This document shows, piece after piece, positions 8,668-30,651 of a stretch of 32,000 bases of DNA. Position 1 is the stretch's first letter; each line of letters starts with the position of its first letter. The translations under genes were made by a program, and so were the position numbers. The notes under the pieces were generated by a model that saw only the letters and a list, made by a program, of their open reading frames with translations, was not told the DNA's origin and ran no database searches. The stretch comes from an uncultured Nitrososphaerota archaeon. Its GTDB lineage: Archaea; Korarchaeota; Korarchaeia; Korarchaeales; Korarchaeaceae. The stretch spans positions 1-32,000 of the forward strand of contig CAYZRF010000006.1 of NCBI GenBank assembly GCA_964480775.1, given 5' to 3'.

Positions 8668-8744
8668 TGGCGCCCCGGCCGGGATTTGAACCCGGGTCTG
8701 GGGCTCGACAGGCCCCTATGCTAACCGGACTACACCACCGGGGC
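8668..8744 (-). tRNA. tRNA-Asp (anticodon GUC), CCA encoded
   Basis: Reverse complement: GCCCCGGTGGTGTAGTCCGGTTAGCATAGGGGCCTGTCGAGCCCCAGACCCGGGTTCAAATCCCGGCCGGGGCGCCA. Hand-folded cloverleaf: 7-bp acceptor stem (GCCCCGG/CCGGGGC), anticodon stem GGGGC/GCCCC with loop CTGTCGA, T arm CCGGG-TTCAAAT-CCCGG. Confidence 0.9.
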
Positions 8745-12456: not shown

Positions 12457-13254
12457 ATGATTAAGCTCTCTCTAATATCGATGGCCGATGGATTACTCCC
12501 CTTCTCAGGAGTGGGTGTTAGATCGGCTATTTTAAAGGCTATATCTTCTGTAGAACCGTTCTTAGCACGTTCTATTAGGTCTGGTGCATTTCAAATACAT
12601 GTAACAAGCATACTTGAGACAGAATCTATCGACTACAGGTGTGGATCTCAGGACATTAATGTGACTAGGGGATCGCCCTATCATGTTAAGATAATCAGCA
12701 ACTCAAAGAAACTTCCTCAAATACTGAGATCTTGGATATTTAGGAACCCCCGTCTTTCCCTCGGTGGAATCACTTTTGACATATCGGATATGAGGGTTAG
12801 CGAGGTATACGTCTCTGAAGTACAAGAAGAGTCCCATAGGAATTTCAGAATCTATTTTTTGTCTCCTACATGTTTTCATAAAGCTCAATCTCCATACTGT
12901 TCACTCTTTCCAGCAGCAGGGTTCATTTTTCAATCCCTTGCATCAAATTGGAGGAAGTTTAATCCTGGGTCTGATATAAACCCAAGACAGTTCAGGCGCT
13001 GGGCTCAATTAAGCCTTGCAGAGACAGGGTATGAATTGTGTACTTCAAAACCATTAAGGCTTCCTGATGGTAGAAACACCGTGGGATTTCTCGGATGGAC
13101 TAATTACAAGCACGTGTTGCATCCTGGATGGACTGAAAGTGATCATGAAAGAATGCTAAAAACAGCTTGGTTCTTGCTTAGATTTGGTGAATATGTAGGC
13201 ATAGGCTTGGGAAACGCCGTTGGTTTTGGTAGGATAAAAGTGGAACCAAAATGA
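12457..13254 (+). CDS. cas6: Cas6-family CRISPR endoribonuclease homolog (stand-alone)
   Basis: C-terminal glycine-rich loop, EYVGIGLGNAVGFGRIKV (G-h-G-x5-G-h-G). Central motif YFLSPTCFHK...SLFPAAGFIFQSLASNWRKFNP, typical of Cas6. N-terminal MIKLSLIS...LP start. I start at ATG 12457; the track's GTG 12427 and ATG 12445 are alternatives. Confidence 0.7.
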   Translation: MIKLSLISMADGLLPFSGVGVRSAILKAISSVEPFLARSIRSGAFQIHVTSILETESIDYRCGSQDINVTRGSPYHVKIISNSKKLPQILRSWIFRNPRLSLGGITFDISDMRVSEVYVSEVQEESHRNFRIYFLSPTCFHKAQSPYCSLFPAAGFIFQSLASNWRKFNPGSDINPRQFRRWAQLSLAETGYELCTSKPLRLPDGRNTVGFLGWTNYKHVLHPGWTESDHERMLKTAWFLLRFGEYVGIGLGNAVGFGRIKVEPK

Positions 13255-20975: not shown

Positions 20976-23141
20976 CTACTTGCTTTTTCCTCCAAACCCA
21001 AGGACCAGGGCCAGCAGAATAACTCCTATTAGGTAGCGGTACTCGTAGAGCAGGGCTTCAAACTCCTCCCTTTCCTCAGAGAACGGCGGCGTGGGCGTCT
21101 CGGTTGGAGCTGGCGTCGTTACGGACTGAGTACGGGAAGAGCTTCCTCCAGGACCTCCGGCAGGTGCTCCTCCAGGCCCTATGACCTCAAAGGCTTGCTC
21201 CTTCGTAGTGGTTGCGGTTCCTCCGTCTCCATCCTGAACCGTTCCTATGGCTGTGTAGTACCCCAGCTGTGCCTCTTGGGGAACCGTCCAGGCGTAGATA
21301 AAGACGTCGTATGTGGAATCGTAGCTTGCCGTCCCGGAGCTGACTATTGTTCCTGTTAGATCCTTTATCTGAATCGTTACCGTTAGGTTTTCGGTTGCCG
21401 TTTCGTTGTCGCTTGCCGCGAACTCAAGACCAACGACCTCTGCTCTCCTAACGGAGAAGGGAGTTGCTCTTGAGAAGCTTATCGTCGGTAGGTAATTGAC
21501 GTAGAAGCTAAACAGGTCGCTCTGAGTAGTACCTTCGCCATCGCTGACGTTCACATACCAATAATAGGTTTGCCCTCTTGAGACCGTTGCTTGAATCCCT
21601 GTCGTCGTTCCGTTGGCCACGTTTGTTAAGGTCCCGATTAGCGTATCATTTGACCAGTAGAAGCTTAGATTCATCGCATCCCCGTTGGGATCCGTGAAGG
21701 TGCAGTTCAGCCAAGGATTAACCACGCTTATTATCGTTCCATTTGGACTCGGAGAGGCCAAAGAAGGCTTGCTCGGAGGGATGTTCGTCGTGTAGGTAAC
21801 GTTCAGCTGGGGATGGAACTCGGTATAACCAGATTCCTTTGAATAGAAAATATGCCATCCGGAGCCATCGCCTGAGTTCGTGAAGTCCCTTCCTATGTAA
21901 ACTCCGTAATTAGCATAGGATCCGTTTACCCAGCCCTGAACAATCTCCTTTATGTCCCAAGTGTTCCAGCCGGTTGTTGCGTTCAGCTTCCTATAAACTG
22001 GGTCCGAGTAGGAGGGAAACGTGTTGTACGTTATCGTCGATTCGTCCCAGCTCGAAGTGATGCGGTGTATTTCGAGGAAGTCGATTCCCGCGGTCCAATA
22101 GTTCCGCCCATGGGAGTAAAGGCAAAGGAGAGCTTGAGTTATTGTGGCGTCGTTTGGAATCGAGCTTACATCGAATCTTATCGTCGTGTTATAGGGGTTT
22201 GTGTAGTCTCCAGCGTACAAATCGGTCGAGGAGCCGTAATTGGTATCTGGGTTGGCCCCATCACAATAGGCGTCGTCCGTTGGAGGGCTCAGCGTTATCG
22301 TTGTTGGGTCTAACGTGAACGGCTGGTCTTCTTTAGCGTTAAAGGGTCCGAAGACAACCGTCATCTTCTTAGAAGCTTGGGAGAAGGTTATGTTCCCTAT
22401 CCTATCGAGGCAGTCCCTGTAATCCTCCATAACCTTGAGACGTCTGTTTAAAGAGGAAAAAACGATTCTCTTAACTTTCGGAAGCTTGTTCGGCTTTGGC
22501 TTGAGTGCCTTGATTTTGAAAAGACCCGTCTCGTTCTCAAAGATCGGAAACTCCGAGACGTCGTTTGAGAAATCGATCTCCTTCACTATGAAGTGCCTGC
22601 CTCCCTGTAAGTAGTTAATGAATGAAACGGCTTGCTTCGCTCCCTGCCATGGCCTGAACGTGTGCTTTATCTCAAGCTTCCCTTGAGAGCACCACATTTC
22701 CCGCGTTATGTTCACTTCATCCTCATTTACGGTGAGGATCCAGTCCTCAAAAGCAAAACTTGTAGCTTTGAAGCCAGGCATCCAGACGCTCCAGCGCTCG
22801 ACGGCGAGCAGAGAGGTCATGTTAGGATCGTAGTACTCCGCGCGGTCCTCGAATATCTTGCAGGCAACCAAGCCAGTCCTTACTAAGTAATAGCCCTCAT
22901 CGCTGTGGTTCTCGAAGATAAGTGGAGCCCATTTCCCAGCTCTCGGATCGTAAACGTTCGGACGGCCTATTACCATCCTGAAAGCGGTTCCGTTCGTGTA
23001 TTTTATGTAATTGGGTCCGTATTCAACCAAGACCCAACCTTCTCCTTTCTCATTTTCCGCTTTTGTCTCTAAGGTAGTGAGAGCCGTGGACAAAGCAAGG
23101 AGCAGCAAAAGGGGAACGACGAAATGTCCTTTCCTTTCCAT
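20976..23141 (-). CDS. Large secreted, C-terminally membrane-anchored surface protein with a DNRLRE-like domain and Ig/Fn3-like repeats
   Basis: Signal peptide MERKGHFVVPLLLLLALSTALTTLETKA. DNRLRE-type pattern DDAYCDGANPDTNYGSSTDLYAG...TIRFDVSSIPNDATITQALLCLYS...IHRITSSWDESTITYNTFP...WDIKEIVQGWVNGSYANYGVYI. T/P-rich linker TTPAPTETPTPP, then TM helix YLIGVILLALVLGFGG and KSK. About 18 N-x-S/T sequons by my count. Confidence 0.7.
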   Translation of the reverse strand: MERKGHFVVPLLLLLALSTALTTLETKAENEKGEGWVLVEYGPNYIKYTNGTAFRMVIGRPNVYDPRAGKWAPLIFENHSDEGYYLVRTGLVACKIFEDRAEYYDPNMTSLLAVERWSVWMPGFKATSFAFEDWILTVNEDEVNITREMWCSQGKLEIKHTFRPWQGAKQAVSFINYLQGGRHFIVKEIDFSNDVSEFPIFENETGLFKIKALKPKPNKLPKVKRIVFSSLNRRLKVMEDYRDCLDRIGNITFSQASKKMTVVFGPFNAKEDQPFTLDPTTITLSPPTDDAYCDGANPDTNYGSSTDLYAGDYTNPYNTTIRFDVSSIPNDATITQALLCLYSHGRNYWTAGIDFLEIHRITSSWDESTITYNTFPSYSDPVYRKLNATTGWNTWDIKEIVQGWVNGSYANYGVYIGRDFTNSGDGSGWHIFYSKESGYTEFHPQLNVTYTTNIPPSKPSLASPSPNGTIISVVNPWLNCTFTDPNGDAMNLSFYWSNDTLIGTLTNVANGTTTGIQATVSRGQTYYWYVNVSDGEGTTQSDLFSFYVNYLPTISFSRATPFSVRRAEVVGLEFAASDNETATENLTVTIQIKDLTGTIVSSGTASYDSTYDVFIYAWTVPQEAQLGYYTAIGTVQDGDGGTATTTKEQAFEVIGPGGAPAGGPGGSSSRTQSVTTPAPTETPTPPFSEEREEFEALLYEYRYLIGVILLALVLGFGGKSK

Positions 23142-24526: not shown

Positions 24527-25166
24527 TCTTATCCCTCCCTTTCCTCACCAATATGGAAGCCCAAGGGTTGTCGAGAAGTTCCTCCATTCCTCCGATTCCT
24601 TTGGGGATCTCGACCTGGACCGGCTCTTCATCAAGCTCTGGCTCGATTGCTGAGGATCCATCAGCGGGAATTGGATCCTTTGGAGTGCCCTGTTCACGTA
24701 TTACGCCATGAGAACCCAGCAAGGCCTTGAGGCGTTCCACTTCAGAAGCCAGCTCCTCGATCCGCTTGTCGTAATACTTGGACCCTATGTAGGGGCCTTT
24801 TTCATAGGATCCATTTCCATCCAAGAAGGAAGTTAGGGCCTGAATTATCAGCTCTGTCATGGTTTTGTCCTCTAATATGGCTCTCCTCCTTAGCTTGCGC
24901 TTGAGATCCCTAGGTATCCTTGCCGTTATGACAACGTCAAGAAAGGGAGGGAGGAATAACAGGGTCAGGTTGAGCTTTCCTTTGAGGAGCTTGGGAACGA
25001 TGAGTAAGAGCAGAACTATTAGGATCAGGGGCTTTAGCTTCCAAGCTATCTTCAGCAAGAGGTAGATGAAGCCCAAGACTGCGAAGAAAACGATTGTTTT
25101 TCTAACTGGATCCGGGAGGGCTTTGATCCACTCAATAAGGCTTAGAATCGTGGTTAGGCCGTCCAT
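24519..25166 (-). CDS. Membrane-anchored ribbon-helix-helix (CopG-like) protein
   Basis: Two predicted TM helices (TIVFFAVLGFIYLLLKIAW, PLILIVLLLLIVPKLL). An RHH-like segment follows, VVITARIPRDLKRKLRRRAILEDKTMTELIIQALTSFL. Then a coiled-coil (RIEELASEVERLKALL) and an acidic tail. Confidence 0.55.
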   Translation of the reverse strand: MDGLTTILSLIEWIKALPDPVRKTIVFFAVLGFIYLLLKIAWKLKPLILIVLLLLIVPKLLKGKLNLTLLFLPPFLDVVITARIPRDLKRKLRRRAILEDKTMTELIIQALTSFLDGNGSYEKGPYIGSKYYDKRIEELASEVERLKALLGSHGVIREQGTPKDPIPADGSSAIEPELDEEPVQVEIPKGIGGMEELLDNPWASILVRKGRDKSG

Positions 25167-25429
25167 CTTTCCGAGATCACCTCCTCAAGCTTAACTTCCC
25201 TCAAAGCCAGCGCAAGAGCCTCTTCCAGCCTCTTAGTTCCCTTTATCTTCAGTACAACGTCAAAGCGAGGCTCGGATTCGGGAAAGCATAGCCTAACGTA
25301 TGTCCGCAGCTTTGGATGTTCTGGCTTAATCCGCTTTCGGTAGATGATGGCAAAAAATCCGGGAAGTTTGAAGCTCTTTGCATAGCGGGCTTTTTTGGGG
25401 ACGAAAGGAACGATTATAGCTTCTTTCAT
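25154..25429 (-). CDS. Hypothetical small basic protein (island operon)
   Basis: 91-aa ORF with a 4-nt start/stop overlap to the upstream gene. No motif recognised. Confidence 0.4.
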   Translation of the reverse strand: MKEAIIVPFVPKKARYAKSFKLPGFFAIIYRKRIKPEHPKLRTYVRLCFPESEPRFDVVLKIKGTKRLEEALALALREVKLEEVISERWTA

Positions 25430-25656
25430 GGAATCACCTCCTCAACAATTTTGTGGTTGAGAAGAATCCTAGCGTTGGTTTCCGGAAGATGGGCAACGTC
25501 TCCAGGGCTGAACGGTCCATAGGTCTGAAGGTCTGGATAGCCTACGAAGGCGGGACATGGCTTTCTGAAGGCAACTAAGACCAAAGCTTTGTTCAATGGA
25601 TCCTTTGGCTCCAGCTTGATTTCCTCTTTCTCTATAAGATAAGCTTCCAAGCTCAT
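25426..25656 (-). CDS. Small protein resembling the GINS B-domain (Psf2/Gins23-like beta domain)
   Basis: Segment FVGYPDLQTYGPFSPGDVAHLPETNARILLNHKIVEEV resembles the GINS B-domain pattern, for example eukaryotic Psf2 ...[28 protein letters not shown]. I start at ATG 25656, 1 nt after the primase stop, rather than at the track's TTG 25698. Confidence 0.4.
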   Translation of the reverse strand: MSLEAYLIEKEEIKLEPKDPLNKALVLVAFRKPCPAFVGYPDLQTYGPFSPGDVAHLPETNARILLNHKIVEEVIP

Positions 25657-25657
25657 C

Positions 25658-27070
25658 TTATCTAACTCCCTCCCTTCTTTGGATTCTGAGATATGCAAGA
25701 GGATTCTTTAGGCCGCAATCAGCCACGCATAAGCCTAACTCCTTCATTCTCTCGCAGGAATGAGGCAAATAGCCCTTTTCGCTTATCTGCTTGATTTGGT
25801 AAGCCGTTATCTTCTCCACGAACCTTGGATCGTTTCTAAAGAGGTCTATGAGCTGCTCTTCGGTCCATCCAGCCTTTTTCAGGTAAGCAACTAACGTAAA
25901 GCGAGCCGTATGAGGAAGGTGCTCTCCACTTTTCGCTCTCTCTATCAGCTTTTTCATGCAAGGAGGCGTTTGTATGGGGCCTTTCGGGATGAATCTCCTT
26001 ACTTTTACCTTCTTGTCTCCCTTTGACTTTACAAATTCCGCAATTTTGAGAAGATCAAGAAAGCTTCTCGCAGAGACAGGATCAAGAGTTCCCCAATAGC
26101 TAACAAACGGTAAAAGATGGCTCTGAGGATCCACTCTCTTAGCTCTCTCTCTGTTAAGCCTGAGTGGCTTCCAAAAGCTGAAATAGATCGATATAAGACC
26201 CTTAGGATGAGGAGAGAACAGAGCCCTTATTGTTCCCCTTTTTCGATAGAGCTGCTTATCGAACACGACAGGAAAGCCCTTCCAAGCCAGCCAATCCTCT
26301 AAATACTCAACTAAGGCTCTGTATTTCGATTGAATCTTCAGATTGAAGCTAAGATATTCTTCCAGATCCATTTCATAGATGAGTTCAGTAATGTCGAGAA
26401 GACCGTGGATTCCATTCCCTGAGATCTTCCAGAGAAGCTCTATTCCGTGCTTCCTTAGTTCTGAGTCTAGAATGGCAAGGGCCCTAACATCCCTCTGCGG
26501 ATCATATTCTTTCTGTGCGTTGAAATCAAGATCGAGGACAAAATCTGTGAATAAGGCATAGAATTGACCATTAAAAGCCTCTGGATGGCTCTTCTTCAAG
26601 TCTTCAACCGTAATAAGCAAGCTTGATGATTCTAAGAGATCCTTTAGGAGAGGGACGTAAATGTAACGTTGCTGGGAGACATGAAGGCATGGAGGACTGA
26701 AGCGGTCCACGTTCTCTATAACGAATCTCTTGAAGTGCTCCTTTTCTGTGAATATGTGCCACTTCGTGAAGCCCTGCTCCTTGTTACCCATTGAAACCTC
26801 TCTATAAGTGACGTAGGTCTTCCTGTTGTAGCGGAAAAAGCGCTGAACTTGGAGCCAATAAAGATCGATGCGGTTCTTGACGAAAGCTCGAAGTTTAATA
26901 GGATCCGCTTCACTATGATCGGTTTGGTTTGTTTGGTAGTTTGGTCGTTTTGGTAATTTGGTAATGTTTGAAGACAGACCTTTATTCTCAGAACATAGTG
27001 TGTCTTTGATTGTTACCAAATTACCAAATTCACCAAATGACCAAAGCGCTTCGTTAGTCCTTGGTTTCAT
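25658..27070 (-). CDS. Archaeo-eukaryotic primase (PriS-like AEP domain) fused to a PriL-type C-terminal Fe-S domain
   Basis: AEP motif I FVLDLDF. Motif II LWKISGNGIHGL. Motif III VVFDKQLYRKRGTIRALFSPHPKG. C-terminal PPCMKKLIERAKSGEHLPHTARFTLVAYLKKAGWTEEQLIDLF matches the PriL/p58 pattern (PxCMxxL...HLxHxxR...LKxxGxxxEQ). Further Cys residues: LPHSCERMKELGLCVADC. The first ~70 codons are low-complexity and coincide with the DNA repeats. Confidence 0.8.
   Translation of the reverse strand: MKPRTNEALWSFGEFGNLVTIKDTLCSENKGLSSNITKLPKRPNYQTNQTDHSEADPIKLRAFVKNRIDLYWLQVQRFFRYNRKTYVTYREVSMGNKEQGFTKWHIFTEKEHFKRFVIENVDRFSPPCLHVSQQRYIYVPLLKDLLESSSLLITVEDLKKSHPEAFNGQFYALFTDFVLDLDFNAQKEYDPQRDVRALAILDSELRKHGIELLWKISGNGIHGLLDITELIYEMDLEEYLSFNLKIQSKYRALVEYLEDWLAWKGFPVVFDKQLYRKRGTIRALFSPHPKGLISIYFSFWKPLRLNRERAKRVDPQSHLLPFVSYWGTLDPVSARSFLDLLKIAEFVKSKGDKKVKVRRFIPKGPIQTPPCMKKLIERAKSGEHLPHTARFTLVAYLKKAGWTEEQLIDLFRNDPRFVEKITAYQIKQISEKGYLPHSCERMKELGLCVADCGLKNPLAYLRIQRREGVR
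26923..27045. repeat. Iteron-like inverted-repeat array (candidate replication origin or Rep-binding site)
   Basis: Five TTTGGT units start at 26923, 26932, 26940, 26949 and 26957. They face four ACCAAA units at 27015, 27023, 27032 and 27040, with 8-9 nt periodicity. Perfect 16-bp inverted repeat: TTTGGTAATTTGGTAA (26949-26964) with TTACCAAATTACCAAA (27013-27028), 48-nt spacer. The spacer holds a nested AAGACA/TGTCTT palindrome (26971-76/27001-06). Confidence 0.75.
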
Positions 27071-29148
27071 GATTTTTCCCCTCCCTGTTCTGCTCCTCCT
27101 TCAATCAGCTTGATCTGATCTCTTTCTCTTGGTAGATCCGTTGAGAGCCTTCCTATCGGTTCAATGTGCTCGCAAGGTTGGGGATCGAGTATTCTAACGT
27201 AGATATCATCATCGTTCTTCTCAAGCTCTATTTTGAGCAGATCTCTAAGCTTCAAATTCAGATTTTCGAGATTCTTTCTTCTTCTTAGAAGACTGATGCA
27301 CTCAGAGAGGTAGTTGTATTCTTGAGGAACATAGGGTATCTCGGCAAGCCGTACCCGATCTCCATCCTCGACGTTTGGAAGGATCTCCCTCCTATAAAGC
27401 TCAATTGCTGAGATTATCTCTCTCAAATAAGCAGGCATCCTCTTGAAGAGTCTCTCGATCCTAAGGCCTATCTCTTCCTCATAGGACCTTGTTATTGCTT
27501 CAATCGAGTCCAAGTTGAGGTCCACAAACTCAGGGAGAAGCTCCTCAGCCTCTTTAAGGATCTCATCTATGGAATACTCTTTGAGGGCTATCCTATCCAA
27601 ATTTTCAACTATTGCAACATTAAGAGCAGCTCCTCTTATTCTGCGCTGTGCTCCCCTCCCATGCTCCCATAAGAAGGCTTTAACTTCCTCATCCTCTATT
27701 GAAGCTATTTTTTCCTCTATCTGATCTTCATATCCTTCAATAGGTTCTCCGAGCCACTTCTCAACTTTCTTGTCATAGTAGATCTTCCTTATCTCTGGAA
27801 GAGCATACTCCTCGACAGCTCTGAAGAACGAGACGGCTTCTCTCCATTCTTCCTCGACGTTTAGAGTTTCAGCCTCAACCCTTTGAAAGTCCTTTCCATA
27901 GACGATTAGGCCAAATCGCCTTCCCATGGCTGGGTTCTTGCTCATAGCCTTGATTATGGACCCAAAAGCCGTGGCTGGATCCTTTGATTCTCCTATCGGA
28001 TTTCCAAGTATCGCCCAAGGAGACCTTGACTTTACCAAAAACTCGGTTGCTGCCGTGGTTACCCTTCCCTCCCCTGTTTCAAGCACTTGGAACAAGAAGC
28101 GAAGGTTCTGCCTGAAGAACTGAGATTCCATCTGGTCGCAAGCTATGACAAGCTCGGAATGATGAATTATTCCAGGATAGACTTCGTCCGGACTCTTAGC
28201 ATAACCGAGGAAGGTGTTCGGACTGATTTTGTCGTATCTATGGCCTATCATCTCGTAAAGAAGAGACTTTCCAGTTCCTCCGTTTGTGAACTCCAAGGCG
28301 TGTGGATTATACTCAGGCCTTACTCCCCTGAGAAGATGGGCTTCCCAAACCAACTTGAGTCTTGAATCTTTCCTAGCTCTGAAAGAGAGGAGCCTATCGA
28401 CGAACGAAAGCCAGTCCATTTCTTTTAGAATGGAAGGGTCCTTAAGCTTGGGGATTGGTTTTAAAAGGAGCCTGGCCTCGGCTACTTCTTTTGCAAGGTC
28501 CAACTCTTCCTCTTTATCATTGCCATCCAGAAAGCCATGTTTACGCAGTAGTTTCTTTATCCTCCTTTTCTCGTTTTCAGGAAGGGCTTCTATGTATGGT
28601 CTAGCTTCCTCTGGATCAAGAACAACCTGTAAGGCCAAATCGTTCCTCCGGGGGCTTACAAAACCATCCGTATCCAGAACTAAGCGAGGAGCAAGGAAGA
28701 GGTCCTCCTTGATGCTCCAGAGCTTCCATAGGATTTCGACGCCGTAATAGAGACCTTTTTGATCGATTTTGGGAATAGTGTGGAAGAAGAAGGGAGAGAT
28801 GGATGCCACTCTAATGGGTTTGTTTACGGCATCCCTCCAATCTCCCCTCGGAATAGGATCCACAATTCTGGCGCCTATTTGTCTCAGAACTTCATTTAGA
28901 GACTTATCAATTTCCTCTAAGTCCAGCGAGGGAAGGAGGGAGTTATCGGCCTCTTTTATTAGCTTGAGAATCTCTTTTTTGAGTTCTCCCACCTTAACCT
29001 CGCTTTGTCTGGTGAATGGGCCCCATTCTCCATGCTTCCCCTTATACTCGAAGATTATGAAGTCTCCTTGCGCTCTGGATTCCTTTGTAAGAAGGAAAGA
29101 TTGCTTCTCGCTCATGAGCACCACCATCGCCCCATTAATTCTGTTCAT
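27067..29148 (-). CDS. Divergent MCM-like AAA+ ATPase (putative replicative helicase)
   Basis: Walker A FTNGGTGKSLL. Walker B-like LVIACDQME. VLETGEGRVTTAATEFLVKSRSPWAILGNPIG parallels the MCM region AMEQQTISIAKAGI..LNAR.SVLAAANP. NPAMGRRFGLIV parallels the arginine-finger region SRFDLIF. The stop overlaps the primase start (ATGA 27067-27070). In-frame ATGs at 29127 and 29115 are alternative starts. Confidence 0.55.
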   Translation of the reverse strand: MNRINGAMVVLMSEKQSFLLTKESRAQGDFIIFEYKGKHGEWGPFTRQSEVKVGELKKEILKLIKEADNSLLPSLDLEEIDKSLNEVLRQIGARIVDPIPRGDWRDAVNKPIRVASISPFFFHTIPKIDQKGLYYGVEILWKLWSIKEDLFLAPRLVLDTDGFVSPRRNDLALQVVLDPEEARPYIEALPENEKRRIKKLLRKHGFLDGNDKEEELDLAKEVAEARLLLKPIPKLKDPSILKEMDWLSFVDRLLSFRARKDSRLKLVWEAHLLRGVRPEYNPHALEFTNGGTGKSLLYEMIGHRYDKISPNTFLGYAKSPDEVYPGIIHHSELVIACDQMESQFFRQNLRFLFQVLETGEGRVTTAATEFLVKSRSPWAILGNPIGESKDPATAFGSIIKAMSKNPAMGRRFGLIVYGKDFQRVEAETLNVEEEWREAVSFFRAVEEYALPEIRKIYYDKKVEKWLGEPIEGYEDQIEEKIASIEDEEVKAFLWEHGRGAQRRIRGAALNVAIVENLDRIALKEYSIDEILKEAEELLPEFVDLNLDSIEAITRSYEEEIGLRIERLFKRMPAYLREIISAIELYRREILPNVEDGDRVRLAEIPYVPQEYNYLSECISLLRRRKNLENLNLKLRDLLKIELEKNDDDIYVRILDPQPCEHIEPIGRLSTDLPRERDQIKLIEGGAEQGGEKS

Positions 29149-29587
29149 CTGGCTCTACCTCTTTCAATGTGAACTCTCGCCCGCATTTTGGACAGAAAAG
29201 CCTTTCTGAGGCAAATTGCTGTTTAACTGGAACTGTGCAGACAGGGCAAAGTGGCACAAAGACATCCTCTTGATCTGTGAGTTCTCTGGCCTCCCTATCT
29301 ACTCTCCAAAGCTCTTCTTCATTATTTCTGTAAACAATTGAAGCAATCAGGAGAGCGAGGAGTTTATTCTGGACTCTAATTTCTTGAATTAGAGCTTCCA
29401 CAAAGGGAAGCGACCGCCCGCCCCCTTCTCGGGCGAAGCTTTTTTTACTTTCCAACGTTTTCATCCTTGGGAAGACCTCCCAGGCCTCCTGTGTGGGGAG
29501 GCTTTCTGGGGGTTGGGGGCTTTGCCCCCTCTTTTTTCTTGGATTTCTACAATGAGTTTTAGCAACTCCACCTTCCATTTTGGCCAT
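29135..29587 (-). CDS. Zinc-ribbon protein (first gene of the island operon)
   Basis: C-terminal CPVC-x15-CPKC zinc-ribbon (LCPVCTVPVKQQFASERLFCPKCGREF). The N-terminal 41 codons are R/K/P-rich and overlap GC-rich hairpins, so the real start may be Met42 (ATG at 29464). Confidence 0.5.
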   Translation of the reverse strand: MAKMEGGVAKTHCRNPRKKRGQSPQPPESLPTQEAWEVFPRMKTLESKKSFAREGGGRSLPFVEALIQEIRVQNKLLALLIASIVYRNNEEELWRVDREARELTDQEDVFVPLCPVCTVPVKQQFASERLFCPKCGREFTLKEVEPDEQN

Positions 29588-29617
29588 ATTTTCTCCAGAA
29601 CAGCCAGCTCCTCAGAA

Positions 29618-29818
29618 CTAAGGTGTTGGGACATTTTCGACTACCTCATGAATTTTTTCGAGATAACCAAGCTCCTGTAGTGTTCTGATAACGCAGAAAC
29701 GATAGAAGCCAGATCTGGATAAGCCAAGGTCTTTTCTTGCTTTTTCGGCCAATTCGAAGACCTTTCGTTTAAGATAAACTAACTCTCTTCGACTTTCCTC
29801 TTGAATGGCTTCAACCAT
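29618..29818 (-). CDS. Ribbon-helix-helix (CopG/Arc-like) DNA-binding protein
   Basis: 66 aa. Pattern ELVYLKRKVFELAEKARKDLGLSRSGFYRFCVIRTLQELG, that is a beta-strand followed by two helices. The palindromic operator lies immediately upstream. Confidence 0.6.
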   Translation of the reverse strand: MVEAIQEESRRELVYLKRKVFELAEKARKDLGLSRSGFYRFCVIRTLQELGYLEKIHEVVENVPTP

Positions 29819-29821
29819 TTA

Positions 29822-29902
29822 TTGATACCTCACTGAAATCGTGAGGTATTAGTGAAATATAAATATTGCATTGATGGTATTATATTGGATGTGAGGTATC
29901 AA
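29822..29902. promoter_or_regulatory. Bidirectional promoter with three copies of a 9-nt operator motif
   Basis: ATACCTCAC (29825-29833) and GTGAGGTAT (29841-29849) form a palindrome with a 7-nt spacer. A third GTGAGGTAT lies at 29891-29899. The 12-mers TTGATACCTCAC (29822-33) and GTGAGGTATCAA (29891-29902) are exact reverse complements. An AT-rich TATA-like AAATATAAATATT sits between them. Confidence 0.6.
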
Positions 29903-30651
29903 TGAGTAGTGAAAAGTCAAGAAGAAAGTCTAGATTGCTACTAAGACCTAGCGAACTCAAGATTCTTTGTTATATCCTTTGTCAGGGTCTTGCTTCGGGT
30001 TACGAGATTGGTAAGGCACTAAAAATGCCTGAATCGACAGTATATACGGCCTTAAAGTTTCTAGAAAGAAGAGGGTTTGTGACTTTTATTGAAGAGGAAA
30101 AAGCAGGACCATTAAAAAAGAAAATATATAGACTAACTCCAAAGGGTCTGCAAGAAGCTTTGAGTTATATACCTCGGGAAAAAGAGGTTTGGGATAACGA
30201 ACTCCTCCGAGAGCTGATTTCTCGTGAAAGTGGAGTTCCCTTTGAGTCCTTGAAGTTCAAAAAAGACCGACTCTTAGAAAATTGGGATGTAATAATGGGA
30301 ATCATTAGAAAAAAGTACAGAGAAATGTGTCCAATCATCTTTGATAATTGGGATCTAATCTCTAAACATCTTGATCTTAGTAGAGGCGAGTTCCTTGATA
30401 ACCTCTTCTACTCCTACAAAGACCCCAAAGAGCGAACGATTGCTTCCTTCCAAGAGTATTTCTTTGTTTCTTTAGTTATTAAGCCATCAGAAGAAGAAAA
30501 AACGAGAATTGAAAAATTCTTGAAGGAAGCTAGTGAGATAAAGCCTTTGAAAGACATCCTTACTATAGCATTTAAAGAATTAGAGGAGCGTGTAGAGAGG
30601 TCCTTAGAAGATATCAAAAAAATAAAGACCCGTCTTTCACAAAGCCCCTAA
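29902..30651 (+). CDS. PadR-like winged-helix transcription regulator with a long helical C-terminal extension
   Basis: N-terminal LKILCYILCQGLASGYEIGKALKMPESTVYTALKFLERRGFVTFIEEEKAGPLKKKIYRLTPKG matches the PadR wHTH pattern. 249 aa and AT-rich (21/60 G+C at 30061-30120). Confidence 0.65.
   Translation: MSSEKSRRKSRLLLRPSELKILCYILCQGLASGYEIGKALKMPESTVYTALKFLERRGFVTFIEEEKAGPLKKKIYRLTPKGLQEALSYIPREKEVWDNELLRELISRESGVPFESLKFKKDRLLENWDVIMGIIRKKYREMCPIIFDNWDLISKHLDLSRGEFLDNLFYSYKDPKERTIASFQEYFFVSLVIKPSEEEKTRIEKFLKEASEIKPLKDILTIAFKELEERVERSLEDIKKIKTRLSQSP

Follow-up and report, generated by a model that had tools for sequence, protein, structure and literature searches.

A mirrored array of short repeats at the 3′ end of an MCM-like helicase gene is a candidate replication origin of an integrative archaeal element

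Background

The Rep proteins of the Staphylococcus aureus pathogenicity islands (SaPIs) are self-loading helicases, either of superfamily 3 (SF3) or MCM-like and of superfamily 6 (SF6), whose C-terminal winged-helix domain (WHD) binds iterons of 5-6 nt (PMC9371898; PMC7581432). The 6-12 iterons of an island directly follow rep and are divided equally between the two flanks of an AT-rich centre, those of one flank facing the opposite way to those of the other; each flank is presumed to be bound by a single hexamer (PMC9371898; PMC7581432). Cch2 of the staphylococcal cassette chromosome mec (SCCmec) binds repeats downstream of its own gene via its C-terminal domain (PMC7581432). We describe here a stretch of 32,000 nucleotides (the window; contig CAYZRF010000006.1, positions 1 to 32,000) from an uncultured archaeon, in which an integrative element carries a mirrored array of TTTGGT units where the gene for an MCM-like helicase meets that for a primase. 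A preliminary description made from the sequence had taken the array for a candidate origin of replication. Its anatomy across related elements and the analogy with the SaPI and SCCmec origins, from which we infer the function, support that proposal, and we give a probability of roughly 0.68 to the array being a cis-acting replication origin that works by the mechanism proposed below.

To our knowledge, most archaeal plasmids, proviruses and integrative elements have no mapped replication origin, and the cellular MCM is thought to need Orc1/Cdc6 for origin selection. At the archaeal origin recognition boxes (ORB and mini-ORB), inverted initiator-binding repeats, bound by Orc1/Cdc6, flank an easily melted centre beside the initiator gene. 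For simian virus 40 (SV40) large T and papillomavirus E1, inverted sites of 5-6 nt nucleate two opposed initiator-helicase hexamers, with melting of the flanking or central DNA, and in lambdoid phages iteron specificity differs among related replicons. A functional parallel between SaPI Rep and SV40 T antigen or E1 has been drawn (PMC7581432). The iterons of the lambda origin (ori) lie within the coding sequence of the O gene and are transcribed through (PMC5043065). Classical plasmid iteron origins (RepA, Pi, TrfA; PMC4980987) have direct iterons of ~17-22 bp about two helical turns apart and a WH-WH Rep protein. Our literature search returned no description of origins like the present one in archaeal elements.

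Results and Discussion

Anatomy of the array

The features at the junction of the two genes are as follows, in positions of the window.

27067..29148, minus strand: divergent MCM-like AAA+ protein of 693 aa with Walker A GGTGKS, the constant genomic partner of the array
25658..27070, minus strand: primase open reading frame (ORF) of 470 aa, with an archaeo-eukaryotic primase (AEP) core and a PriL-type C-terminal domain with four Cys
27015..27045, minus strand: helicase-proximal arm, four TTTGGT on the coding strand (ACCAAA on the plus strand), start-to-start 8, 9, 8 nt
26923..26962, plus strand: distal arm, five TTTGGT (ACCAAA on the coding strand), start-to-start 9, 8, 9, 8 nt
26963..27014, no strand: centre, 52 nt, GC 0.33
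26971..26979, plus strand: left box AAGACAGAC, 8 nt inside the inner unit, with one mismatch to the family box CAGACAGAC
26998..27007, minus strand: partner box AAAGACACAC (GTGTGTCTTT on the plus strand), 7 nt inside the other inner unit

The five TTTGGT units (plus-strand starts at 26923, 26932, 26940, 26949 and 26957) and the four ACCAAA units that face them (27015, 27023, 27032 and 27040) are all where the preliminary description had placed them, with the 8-9 nt periodicity it had noticed. The distal arm mirrors the proximal arm, its inner four units standing in register with it, and a fuller form of the proximal unit is approximately ATTTGGTA. Equally present are the perfect 16-bp inverted repeat that had been reported (26949-26964 with 27013-27028, with 48 nt between its arms) and the palindrome nested inside it, which the two boxes form and in which AAGACA (26971-26976) faces TGTCTT (27001-27006). 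The centre, presumed to be a melting or hairpin region between the arms, has a GC of 0.33 versus ~0.44 in its surroundings, and the 123-nt array as a whole (26923-27045, GC 0.333) is the minimum of the helicase and primase genes, in the lowest 0.03% of windows. TTTGGT occurs 37 times in the 32 kb, against 18.2 ± 4.3 times in shuffles, and nine of the 37 hits fall within the array. A search across the window for a second iteron cluster found none. Triplets of TTTGGT/ACCAAA at 898-935 and 13183-13250, both in host genes, are irregularly spaced without the 8/9 rhythm and were judged to be due to chance.

The array had also been assigned to the low-complexity 5′ part of the primase ORF, and it does occupy codons 9-50 of that frame, where it is translated as WSFGEFGNLV...ITKLPKRPNYQTNQT; both other reading frames are interrupted by stop codons. 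The primase ATG (27070), with GGAGG-like sequence ahead of it, overlaps the helicase stop codon (ATGA), and the first unit starts 21 nt past that stop codon (27067-27069 versus 27045). Within primase codons 1-110 the only in-frame start-like codons are ATG-1 (27070), TTG-18 (27019, inside the array) and ATG-94 (26791), the last of which lies beyond residues invariant among primase homologues; these begin at P57, and the conserved protein at about residue 55. There is thus no alternative start between the array and the conserved residues, and the overlap between array and coding sequence is genuine, as had been suspected.

The array in related elements

We compared the window with ten distinct elements that encode members of the same helicase family, namely L004 (with L005), L006, L165, L167, L168, L169, L170, L171, L172 and L173; the membership of the L006 protein was established by hhalign (E 2e-171). 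The related contigs come from metagenome-assembled genomes (MAGs) labelled Thermoproteota and Nitrososphaerota. Each of the 11 elements has a mirrored array close to where its helicase gene ends, among helicases that are 30-80% identical. The arms are in every case in opposite orientation, with 3-5 units per arm; the units total nine in the window and 5-12 in each of the ten others. The start-to-start spacing is (8 or 9), 9, 8 on the left and its mirror 8, 9, (8 or 9) on the right in seven of nine tabulated inverted-array loci. L168 (9, 8 on the left) and L171 (9, 9 in one arm and 9 in the other) have shorter arms to which the rhythm still fits, and in L165 the left arm is slightly irregular (10, 8), with two extra units downstream. 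With the short arms counted in, nine of the ten relatives follow the mirrored pattern. The length of the centre varies from 50 to 78 nt.

The unit is 6-7 nt long, and its sequence is specific to the element. Ten unit types were found (TTTGGT, TTTCGT, TTATCC, TTTAAC, TTTCTA, TTCACC, TTCTCC, TTACCC, TTCGAC and TTTCTC), and those of the nine further loci are distributed as listed here.

L006: left TTATCC, right GGATAA
L165: left TTCGAC, right GTCGAA
L167: left TTTAACC, right GGTTAAA
L168: left TTTCTA(C), right TAGAAA
L169: left TTTCACC, right GGTGAAA
L170: left TTTCGTA, right TACGAAA
L171: left TTTACCCGA, right CGGGTAA
L172: left TTCTCC, right GGAGAA
L173: left TTTCTC(A/C), right GAGAAA

The closest comparison is with primase P0003 of L004 and L005, a full-length relative of the window primase (53% identical) with an array at the equivalent position, spaced 8, 9, 8 in both arms. 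There all units read TTTCGT/ACGAAA and not TTTGGT/ACCAAA, which means that each of the eight units common to both arrays differs by a single base, with G replaced by C in one arm and C by G in the other, and the peptide follows the change in the DNA (FG to FR etc.). Within a locus, the left-arm consensus and the reverse-complemented consensus of the right arm agree on average at 5.9 of 6 positions, compared with 3.2 of 6 across loci. Over all loci, 188 of 198 unit positions are complementary, and the only cross-locus matches of 6/6 are those between L004 and L170, which have a common unit.

Between the arms, most loci have a family box 7-8 nt inside each inner unit. The consensus pair is CAGACAGAC/GTCTSTCTG, where CAGACAGAC is the left-side form, with the variants GGAGACAGAC, CAGAGAGAGAC, AAGACAGAC and GAAGAGAC; the right-side box is the complement (GTCTCTG, GTCTGTCTT and similar), and the box has GTC/GAC motifs on both strands. 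The array of L173 (3901-4095) has one left arm with its box and two tandem right halves, each with a GTCTCTG box and four GAGAAA units at 8, 9, 8, and is an asymmetric variant of the candidate origin.

Could the repeats have no function at all, and be chance low complexity, or slippage repeats that encode a tolerated disordered peptide? The peptide is of low complexity, and in the AlphaFold2 (AF2) model of the primase the confidence is lowest at residues 1-56, although the whole model is poor (mean predicted local distance difference test, pLDDT, of 44 from an alignment of four sequences). However, mirrored arrays, defined as at least three copies of a 5-mer at 8-9 nt followed within 150 nt by at least three reverse complements, appeared in none of 300 Markov-simulated 32-kb sequences, and the geometry, together with concerted change of the arms, is common to all 11 elements, in which protein identity has fallen to 30-45%. 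The comparative sequence data effectively refute the absence of function, to which we give next to no credence.

An 85%-identical relative of the window primase (P0002, in L001-L003 and L009) was uninformative, since its contigs end just 3′ of the expected array position. Those of L001, L002 and L003 all end ~10 nt 3′ of the expected array end. L001 starts (1-68) with a complete Nextera i5 adapter, which encodes the called N-terminus MCIRDRS, and the called protein is identical in the three P0002 assemblies, so that the junction is apparently common to them. Apparently, the inverted array breaks assemblies. Protein-guided locus searches gave nothing for helicase or primase in IMG/VR, and one truncated contig in a genome collection.

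Selection on the DNA and linkage to the helicase gene

The same array is read as different proteins in different elements. In eight of them it is translated as the C-terminal tail of the helicase, within the last ~100-350 nt of that ORF and after the final conserved motif IEP(I/L)G, and in the remaining three, which are the window, L004/L005 and L165/L166, it encodes N-terminal residues of the ORF that follows. The units recur every ~8.5 nt, a period that three does not divide, and they fall in codon phases that vary from locus to locus. The L170 helicase can be aligned at its C-terminal tail with the start of the L004 primase only because both genes contain TTTCGT arrays. Since the geometry is kept while the units change concertedly and both the codon phase and the protein encoded vary, selection acts on the DNA and not on the peptide. 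The preliminary description had proposed asking whether homologous elements conserve the repeats while the encoded peptide varies, and the preservation of the architecture in 11 of 11 elements is a stronger answer than it had looked for. We are considerably more certain of a protein-bound cis element under selection as DNA than of an origin function for the array, and the low-complexity helicase 'tails' and primase 'N-terminal extension' are by-products of this DNA element.

An element acting at the RNA level is also conceivable, in which the arms would pair imperfectly into a long hairpin of the polycistronic mRNA, where the helicase and primase coding sequences meet, and so set translation ratio, stability or processing. 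The array region is indeed predicted to fold strongly as RNA (minimum free energy of -43.3 kcal/mol, z = -6.65, with none of 200 shuffles as stable), the mirrored spacer lengths hold the arms in register, the unit changes are compensatory between the arms, and the array always lies within a transcribed ORF near a gene boundary. Pairing, however, needs complementarity only, yet the 3-5 units of an arm stay identical in nearly every element and change together, and the 8/9/8 rhythm is kept though any symmetric spacing would pair. The spacers between the units show little complementarity in the window (a manual count gave 2 of 7 positions), and the 31 of 59 obtained by pooling the loci is inflated because the real units are 7-8 nt long. 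Moreover, the duplicated right half in L173 cannot pair inside one hairpin, and the array had no match in Rfam 15 at the gathering score, plant miRNA precursor hairpins being the only hits, at 21-32.5 bits against 74-180. We consider an RNA-level element unlikely. Repeated binding of one protein module in two orientations, on the other hand, explains the identical units, the fixed 8/9/8 and the non-complementary spacers.

The gene 3′ of the helicase varies among the elements, being an AEP-PriL or AEP-PriX primase, a PriS-like protein, a 1076-aa protein, or small unknown ORFs or none recognisable. The downstream gene is therefore not conserved whereas the MCM-like gene is constant, which links the array to the helicase gene and not to the primase. 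The tie to the primase ORF that had been emphasised at first holds for the window but is incidental, as most relatives have the array in the 3′ tail of the helicase gene.

This variation bears on another reading, in which the array would be a hairpin for single-strand initiation or primase recognition, used after unwinding elsewhere, and not a site of helicase loading. Such a use has been suggested for plasmid pRN1, whose stem-loop origin region follows orf904. Single-stranded DNA (ssDNA) of the array region is predicted to fold with z = -6.55, and such a strong fold, as RNA or ssDNA, makes a hairpin physically plausible; the GTC/GAC motifs of the central box on both strands and the abutment of array and primase gene in the window would suit this reading as well. 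But the type of primase varies among the array-bearing elements, some of which have no recognisable adjacent primase, non-homologous primases would have to read element-specific units, and the direct repetition would be unexplained, so we regard a primase hairpin as highly improbable.

A protein could also bind the array for a purpose other than initiation, at a centromere-like partition site or an operator for the winged helix-turn-helix (wHTH) or ribbon-helix-helix (RHH) regulators of the element. Short sites iterated in two sets are a usual feature of plasmid centromeres and certain operators, and the partition site parC of plasmid R1 has two sets of iterons. The window encodes a TrmB/PadR-like wHTH protein (29902..30651) and one further ORF with a weak match to Arc-like repressors, and the regulators are among the proteins that differ most between the window and L004 (38-41% identity), as could be expected of a partner in specificity. 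In all 11 elements, however, the array keeps its place where the MCM-like gene ends, and does not adjoin the regulator genes or the divergent promoter region; the ORFs scanned included no gene of ParA/ParB/SegAB type; and L004 and L170, which have a common unit, have no pair of related wHTH regulators at E 1e-3 (BLASTP). A better operator candidate exists in a 19-nt tandem repeat, ATATTGCATGTGAGGTATT x1.9 at 29863-29899, in the intergenic region from which the replication operon and the wHTH gene diverge; for this repeat the role of operator is plausible. A partition or operator function of the array seems to us about as doubtful as an RNA-level one.

Comparison of the window (25000-29700) with L004 (5100-9800) gave a nucleotide identity of ~0.7-0.9 over the helicase gene, which falls to ~0.5-0.6 exactly at the helicase stop and the array (boundary 27095) and rises again at the 3′ end of the primase and in the Gins-like gene that follows it. 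At the protein level, the helicases are 80% identical and the primases 53%. From this alignment the array looks like a junction at which modules are exchanged between elements.

The MCM-like helicase

The neighbouring protein had been called MCM-like, and structure prediction bears this out. The AF2 model of the 693-aa protein, built from 18 sequences, has a pLDDT of 81.4 and a predicted template modelling score (pTM) of 0.72, and the top 50 Foldseek matches in the PDB are all archaeal or eukaryotic MCM chains (E 3.6e-10 to 5e-8, over 530-770 aligned columns), so that as modelled the protein has an MCM-type AAA+ fold. The Foldseek TM-scores to MCMs are only ~0.3, which may reflect domain orientation. 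At the sequence level there was no match in Pfam, PHROG or NCBIfam, and a profile search of the PDB gave MCM3 only at E = 0.024, over Walker B, sensor 1 and the arginine finger; without a match to an MCM profile, 'MCM-like' is the better description. About 20 homologues could be retrieved directly, and an exhaustive profile search extended the family to 526 cluster representatives (at 50% identity) with E <= 1e-3, of which 233 have E <= 1e-30. Exact-sequence cluster look-ups for four proteins, including the window primase and helicase, returned no names.

Towards its C-terminus the model contains a further module, followed by a disordered tail.

27184..27357, minus strand: predicted helix-helix-strand-strand module, residues ~598-655, from AF2 secondary structure at pLDDT 82-89

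This module is a possible C-terminal winged-helix domain as judged from the model and, by analogy with SaPI Rep and Cch2, a candidate reader of the iterons.

The array as a candidate origin

Among described systems, the closest known analogue is the SaPI-type iteron origin of a self-loading helicase. Like the SaPI and SCCmec arrays, the present one consists of short repeats directly 3′ of an AAA+ helicase gene, in two opposed sets round a centre. Iteron sequences are island-specific in SaPIs, as they are element-specific in the archaeal family, and a primase gene is adjacent (PMC9371898; PMC7581432). There are differences too. The hosts here are archaea, and the helicase, without a Pfam, NCBIfam or PHROG match, resembles archaeal and eukaryotic MCMs over ~600 columns in Foldseek; the array is inside coding sequence and not intergenic, its mirrored 8/9/8 spacing is strictly conserved, and it has the family box CAGACAGAC...GTCTSTCTG between the arms. 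Reading of the iterons by a C-terminal winged helix is only putative in the archaeal family.

With these analogies in mind, we infer the binding protein, the hexamer geometry, the melting and the origin activity in the following way. Each unit of 6-8 bp would be the site for one subunit of an element-encoded initiator, most likely the MCM-like helicase encoded directly upstream, which would read the units via its putative C-terminal winged helix. With the units ~8.3-8.7 bp apart, successive sites lie ~60-75 degrees apart round the helix, offsets that would suit a hexameric ring or spiral. The oppositely pointing arms would nucleate two helicase assemblies, head-on across the low-GC centre, and the centre with its family box would melt or extrude a hairpin, where the first priming would occur. 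The helicases would thereby be loaded for bidirectional unwinding, and the adjacent AEP-PriL primase would prime synthesis, perhaps with the Gins51-like protein encoded after it. The candidate origin occupies the variable stretch that connects the helicase core to the gene behind it, and is as a consequence transcribed and translated, in most elements as a disordered helicase tail and in the window as what would be a dispensable N-terminus of the primase.

Several findings weigh against this proposal. The strong hairpin fold (z ~ -6.6) is compatible with a role at the RNA level, as discussed above. The AT-richness of the centre is not universal, its GC ranging over the loci from 0.25 to 0.49, and in the window there are stretches of still lower GC elsewhere in the element (~29850-30460). 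The helicases of the window and L004 differ at eight positions in the predicted HTH-wing (~598-655), where nucleotide identity is 0.90-0.93; four of the differences (E616K, S619D, R622K and L632S) are in the two helices and the wing is identical, although the units differ by G to C. These four could be a G-versus-C specificity switch, or equally a sign that another protein reads the units. A sliding-window scan for covariation with the unit, which with nine sequences had little power, did not single out the HTH, the best correlations being at helicase residues 551-570 (r = 0.45) and 430-449 (r = 0.41). On the other side, L004 and L170, which have the unit in common, are 73% identical in the HTH segment versus 42% overall, while the closer relative L167, with a different unit, has 57% versus 54%; as support for the reader domain this sequence comparison is suggestive only.

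The other known systems are more distant. Repeats within the coding sequence of a replication gene, as at lambda ori (PMC5043065), are found here too. The iterons of lambda, however, are four inverted repeats of 19 bp, to each of which a dimer of O binds, with a 40-bp AT-rich region to one side of them, and the lambda initiator is not a helicase; the archaeal array is in a terminal tail or N-terminal extension and not in an inter-domain linker of the initiator. With SV40 and E1 the likeness consists of short inverted site sets and, in our proposal, two opposed helicase assemblies. Those proteins are SF3 helicases with an N-terminal origin-binding domain, and their sites are tightly packed (~6 bp or overlapping) versus 8-9 bp here, SV40 having four sites in total versus 4-5 per arm.

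The preliminary description had seen, in the inverted arrays round a spacer, a resemblance to plasmid iteron and ORB origins; the parallels with ORB and with direct-repeat iterons of ~20 bp are loose. ORB repeats are longer, and the array is set apart from them by its units of 6-8 nt, iterated four to five times at less than a helical turn. No orc1/cdc6 gene (AAA+/WH) was present among the element ORFs scanned, and we do not place the array in the ORB class. Nor does it belong with the classical plasmid iteron origins, given its units of 6-8 nt, spacing of 8-9 nt and inverted sets; no Rep_3-type protein was found among the ORFs scanned.

The primase and the element

The AEP-type motifs of the window primase include DxD at 'DFVLDLD' and 'SGNGIHG'. 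The C-terminal part resembles PriL (Pfam PF04104, E 3e-19; NCBIfam PriL, E 3e-33 for residues 368-467, below the full-length cutoff), and only five other database matches to the protein were obtained. By its description, PolpTN2 of Thermococcales plasmids, in which an AEP is fused to a PriL-like Fe-S C-terminal domain (PMC5862659), has a similar arrangement; the C-terminal WH domain proposed for PolpTN2 was not detected in the window primase. Other features of the window are these.

25426..25698, minus strand: protein of 90 aa with a Gins51 C-terminal domain (PF22090, E 1.6e-14), directly 3′ of the primase
8668-8744: tRNA-Asp gene

The Gins51-domain gene is syntenic in L001 and L004, and its product is a probable accessory factor of the replication module. 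One element thus encodes the MCM-like protein, the primase and a GINS-like piece.

Host-type genes extend up to 20743 and include those for an iron-containing alcohol dehydrogenase (Fe-ADH), an ABC ATPase, a thiamine pyrophosphate (TPP) enzyme of the pyruvate oxidoreductase (POR) type, an enzyme of CoA-ligase type, a radical S-adenosylmethionine (SAM) protein, NfeD, phosphoenolpyruvate (PEP) synthase and RsmB. The element starts by ~20976, with a higher GC (~0.50 at 21-25 kb), and extends past 30651. At its edge, in the high-GC part, 20976-23141 (minus strand) encodes a 721-aa protein with CBM96 / disaggregatase-repeat and Ig-like domains, and L171 has a DUF2341/Laminin_G_3 protein in a comparable position; the element may carry surface-protein cargo. 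No integrase was seen among the window ORFs scanned, and tyrosine integrases are encoded in the relatives L006, L165, L169 and L170.

Two further roles were considered for the array and rejected. Arm-type sites of an integrase do not fit, the integrase genes of the relatives being 3-5 kb off and none being seen in the window. For a programmed -1 frameshift that would fuse helicase to primase the frame is indeed -1, but no slippery X XXY YYZ heptamer precedes the stop codon in frame, and as a frameshift stimulator the hairpin starts too far away (>20 nt downstream).

Mirrored arrays in unrelated contigs

Viral and metagenome contigs were also scanned with the pattern TTTNGTNNTTTNGTNNNTTTNGTNNTTTNGT, which proved too permissive and returned mostly T-rich junk, with no helicase or primase relatives among the matches listed. 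Unrelated metagenome contigs of high GC (0.64-0.67) contain mirrored arrays of CACGAAA followed by TTTCGTG, each in several copies at 8-9 nt spacing, at these positions.

L054: 2381-2620
L060: 1843-1907
L092: 2375-2462
L130: 7209-7276
L155: 35-202

Their polarity is opposite to that of the archaeal family (A-tract inward), the contigs have no helicase or primase relatives, and the arrays may represent another class of iteron origin. Two more unrelated contigs have mirrored arrays, L096 (9105-9255, GC 0.40; TTTTTGTGG x4 ... CCACAAAAA x4) and L079 (3060-3236, GC 0.65; TTGGTTCG ... CGAACCAA).

Implications

The comparison yields a candidate origin with precise limits, validated across relatives, and its partner, a divergent MCM-fold helicase; at least 11 elements of uncultured archaea have this pair. 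What is new in relation to known iteron origins is the combination of archaeal hosts, an MCM-fold initiator candidate, embedding in an ORF, the fixed mirrored 8/9/8 and the conserved central box. For annotation there is a warning, namely that what look like low-complexity tails in these helicases, and like an N-terminal extension in the primase, stem from a DNA element. Because natural specificity variants exist that differ by one base per unit (TTTGGT versus TTTCGT), self-loading, the recognition code and origin function within a gene are all directly testable, and the arrays are a possible source of minimal replicons for genetic tools in poorly tractable archaea.

A wider suggestion, which we make tentatively and hold somewhat less probable than its opposite, is that the unannotated archaeal MCM-like family with its 526 representatives consists of sequence-specific, self-loading, origin-recognising helicases, each with an origin of its own, written into its gene at the 3′ end or into the following gene at the 5′ end. 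If this were true, an MCM-fold protein would select origins directly, without Orc1/Cdc6, and there would be a simple, evolvable code between a few residues of the DNA-binding module and a variable core of 3-4 nt. The ORF-embedded origin would also be an exchange junction for replication modules, which the step in identity between the window and L004 at the array, from ~0.8-0.9 to ~0.5-0.6, would fit.

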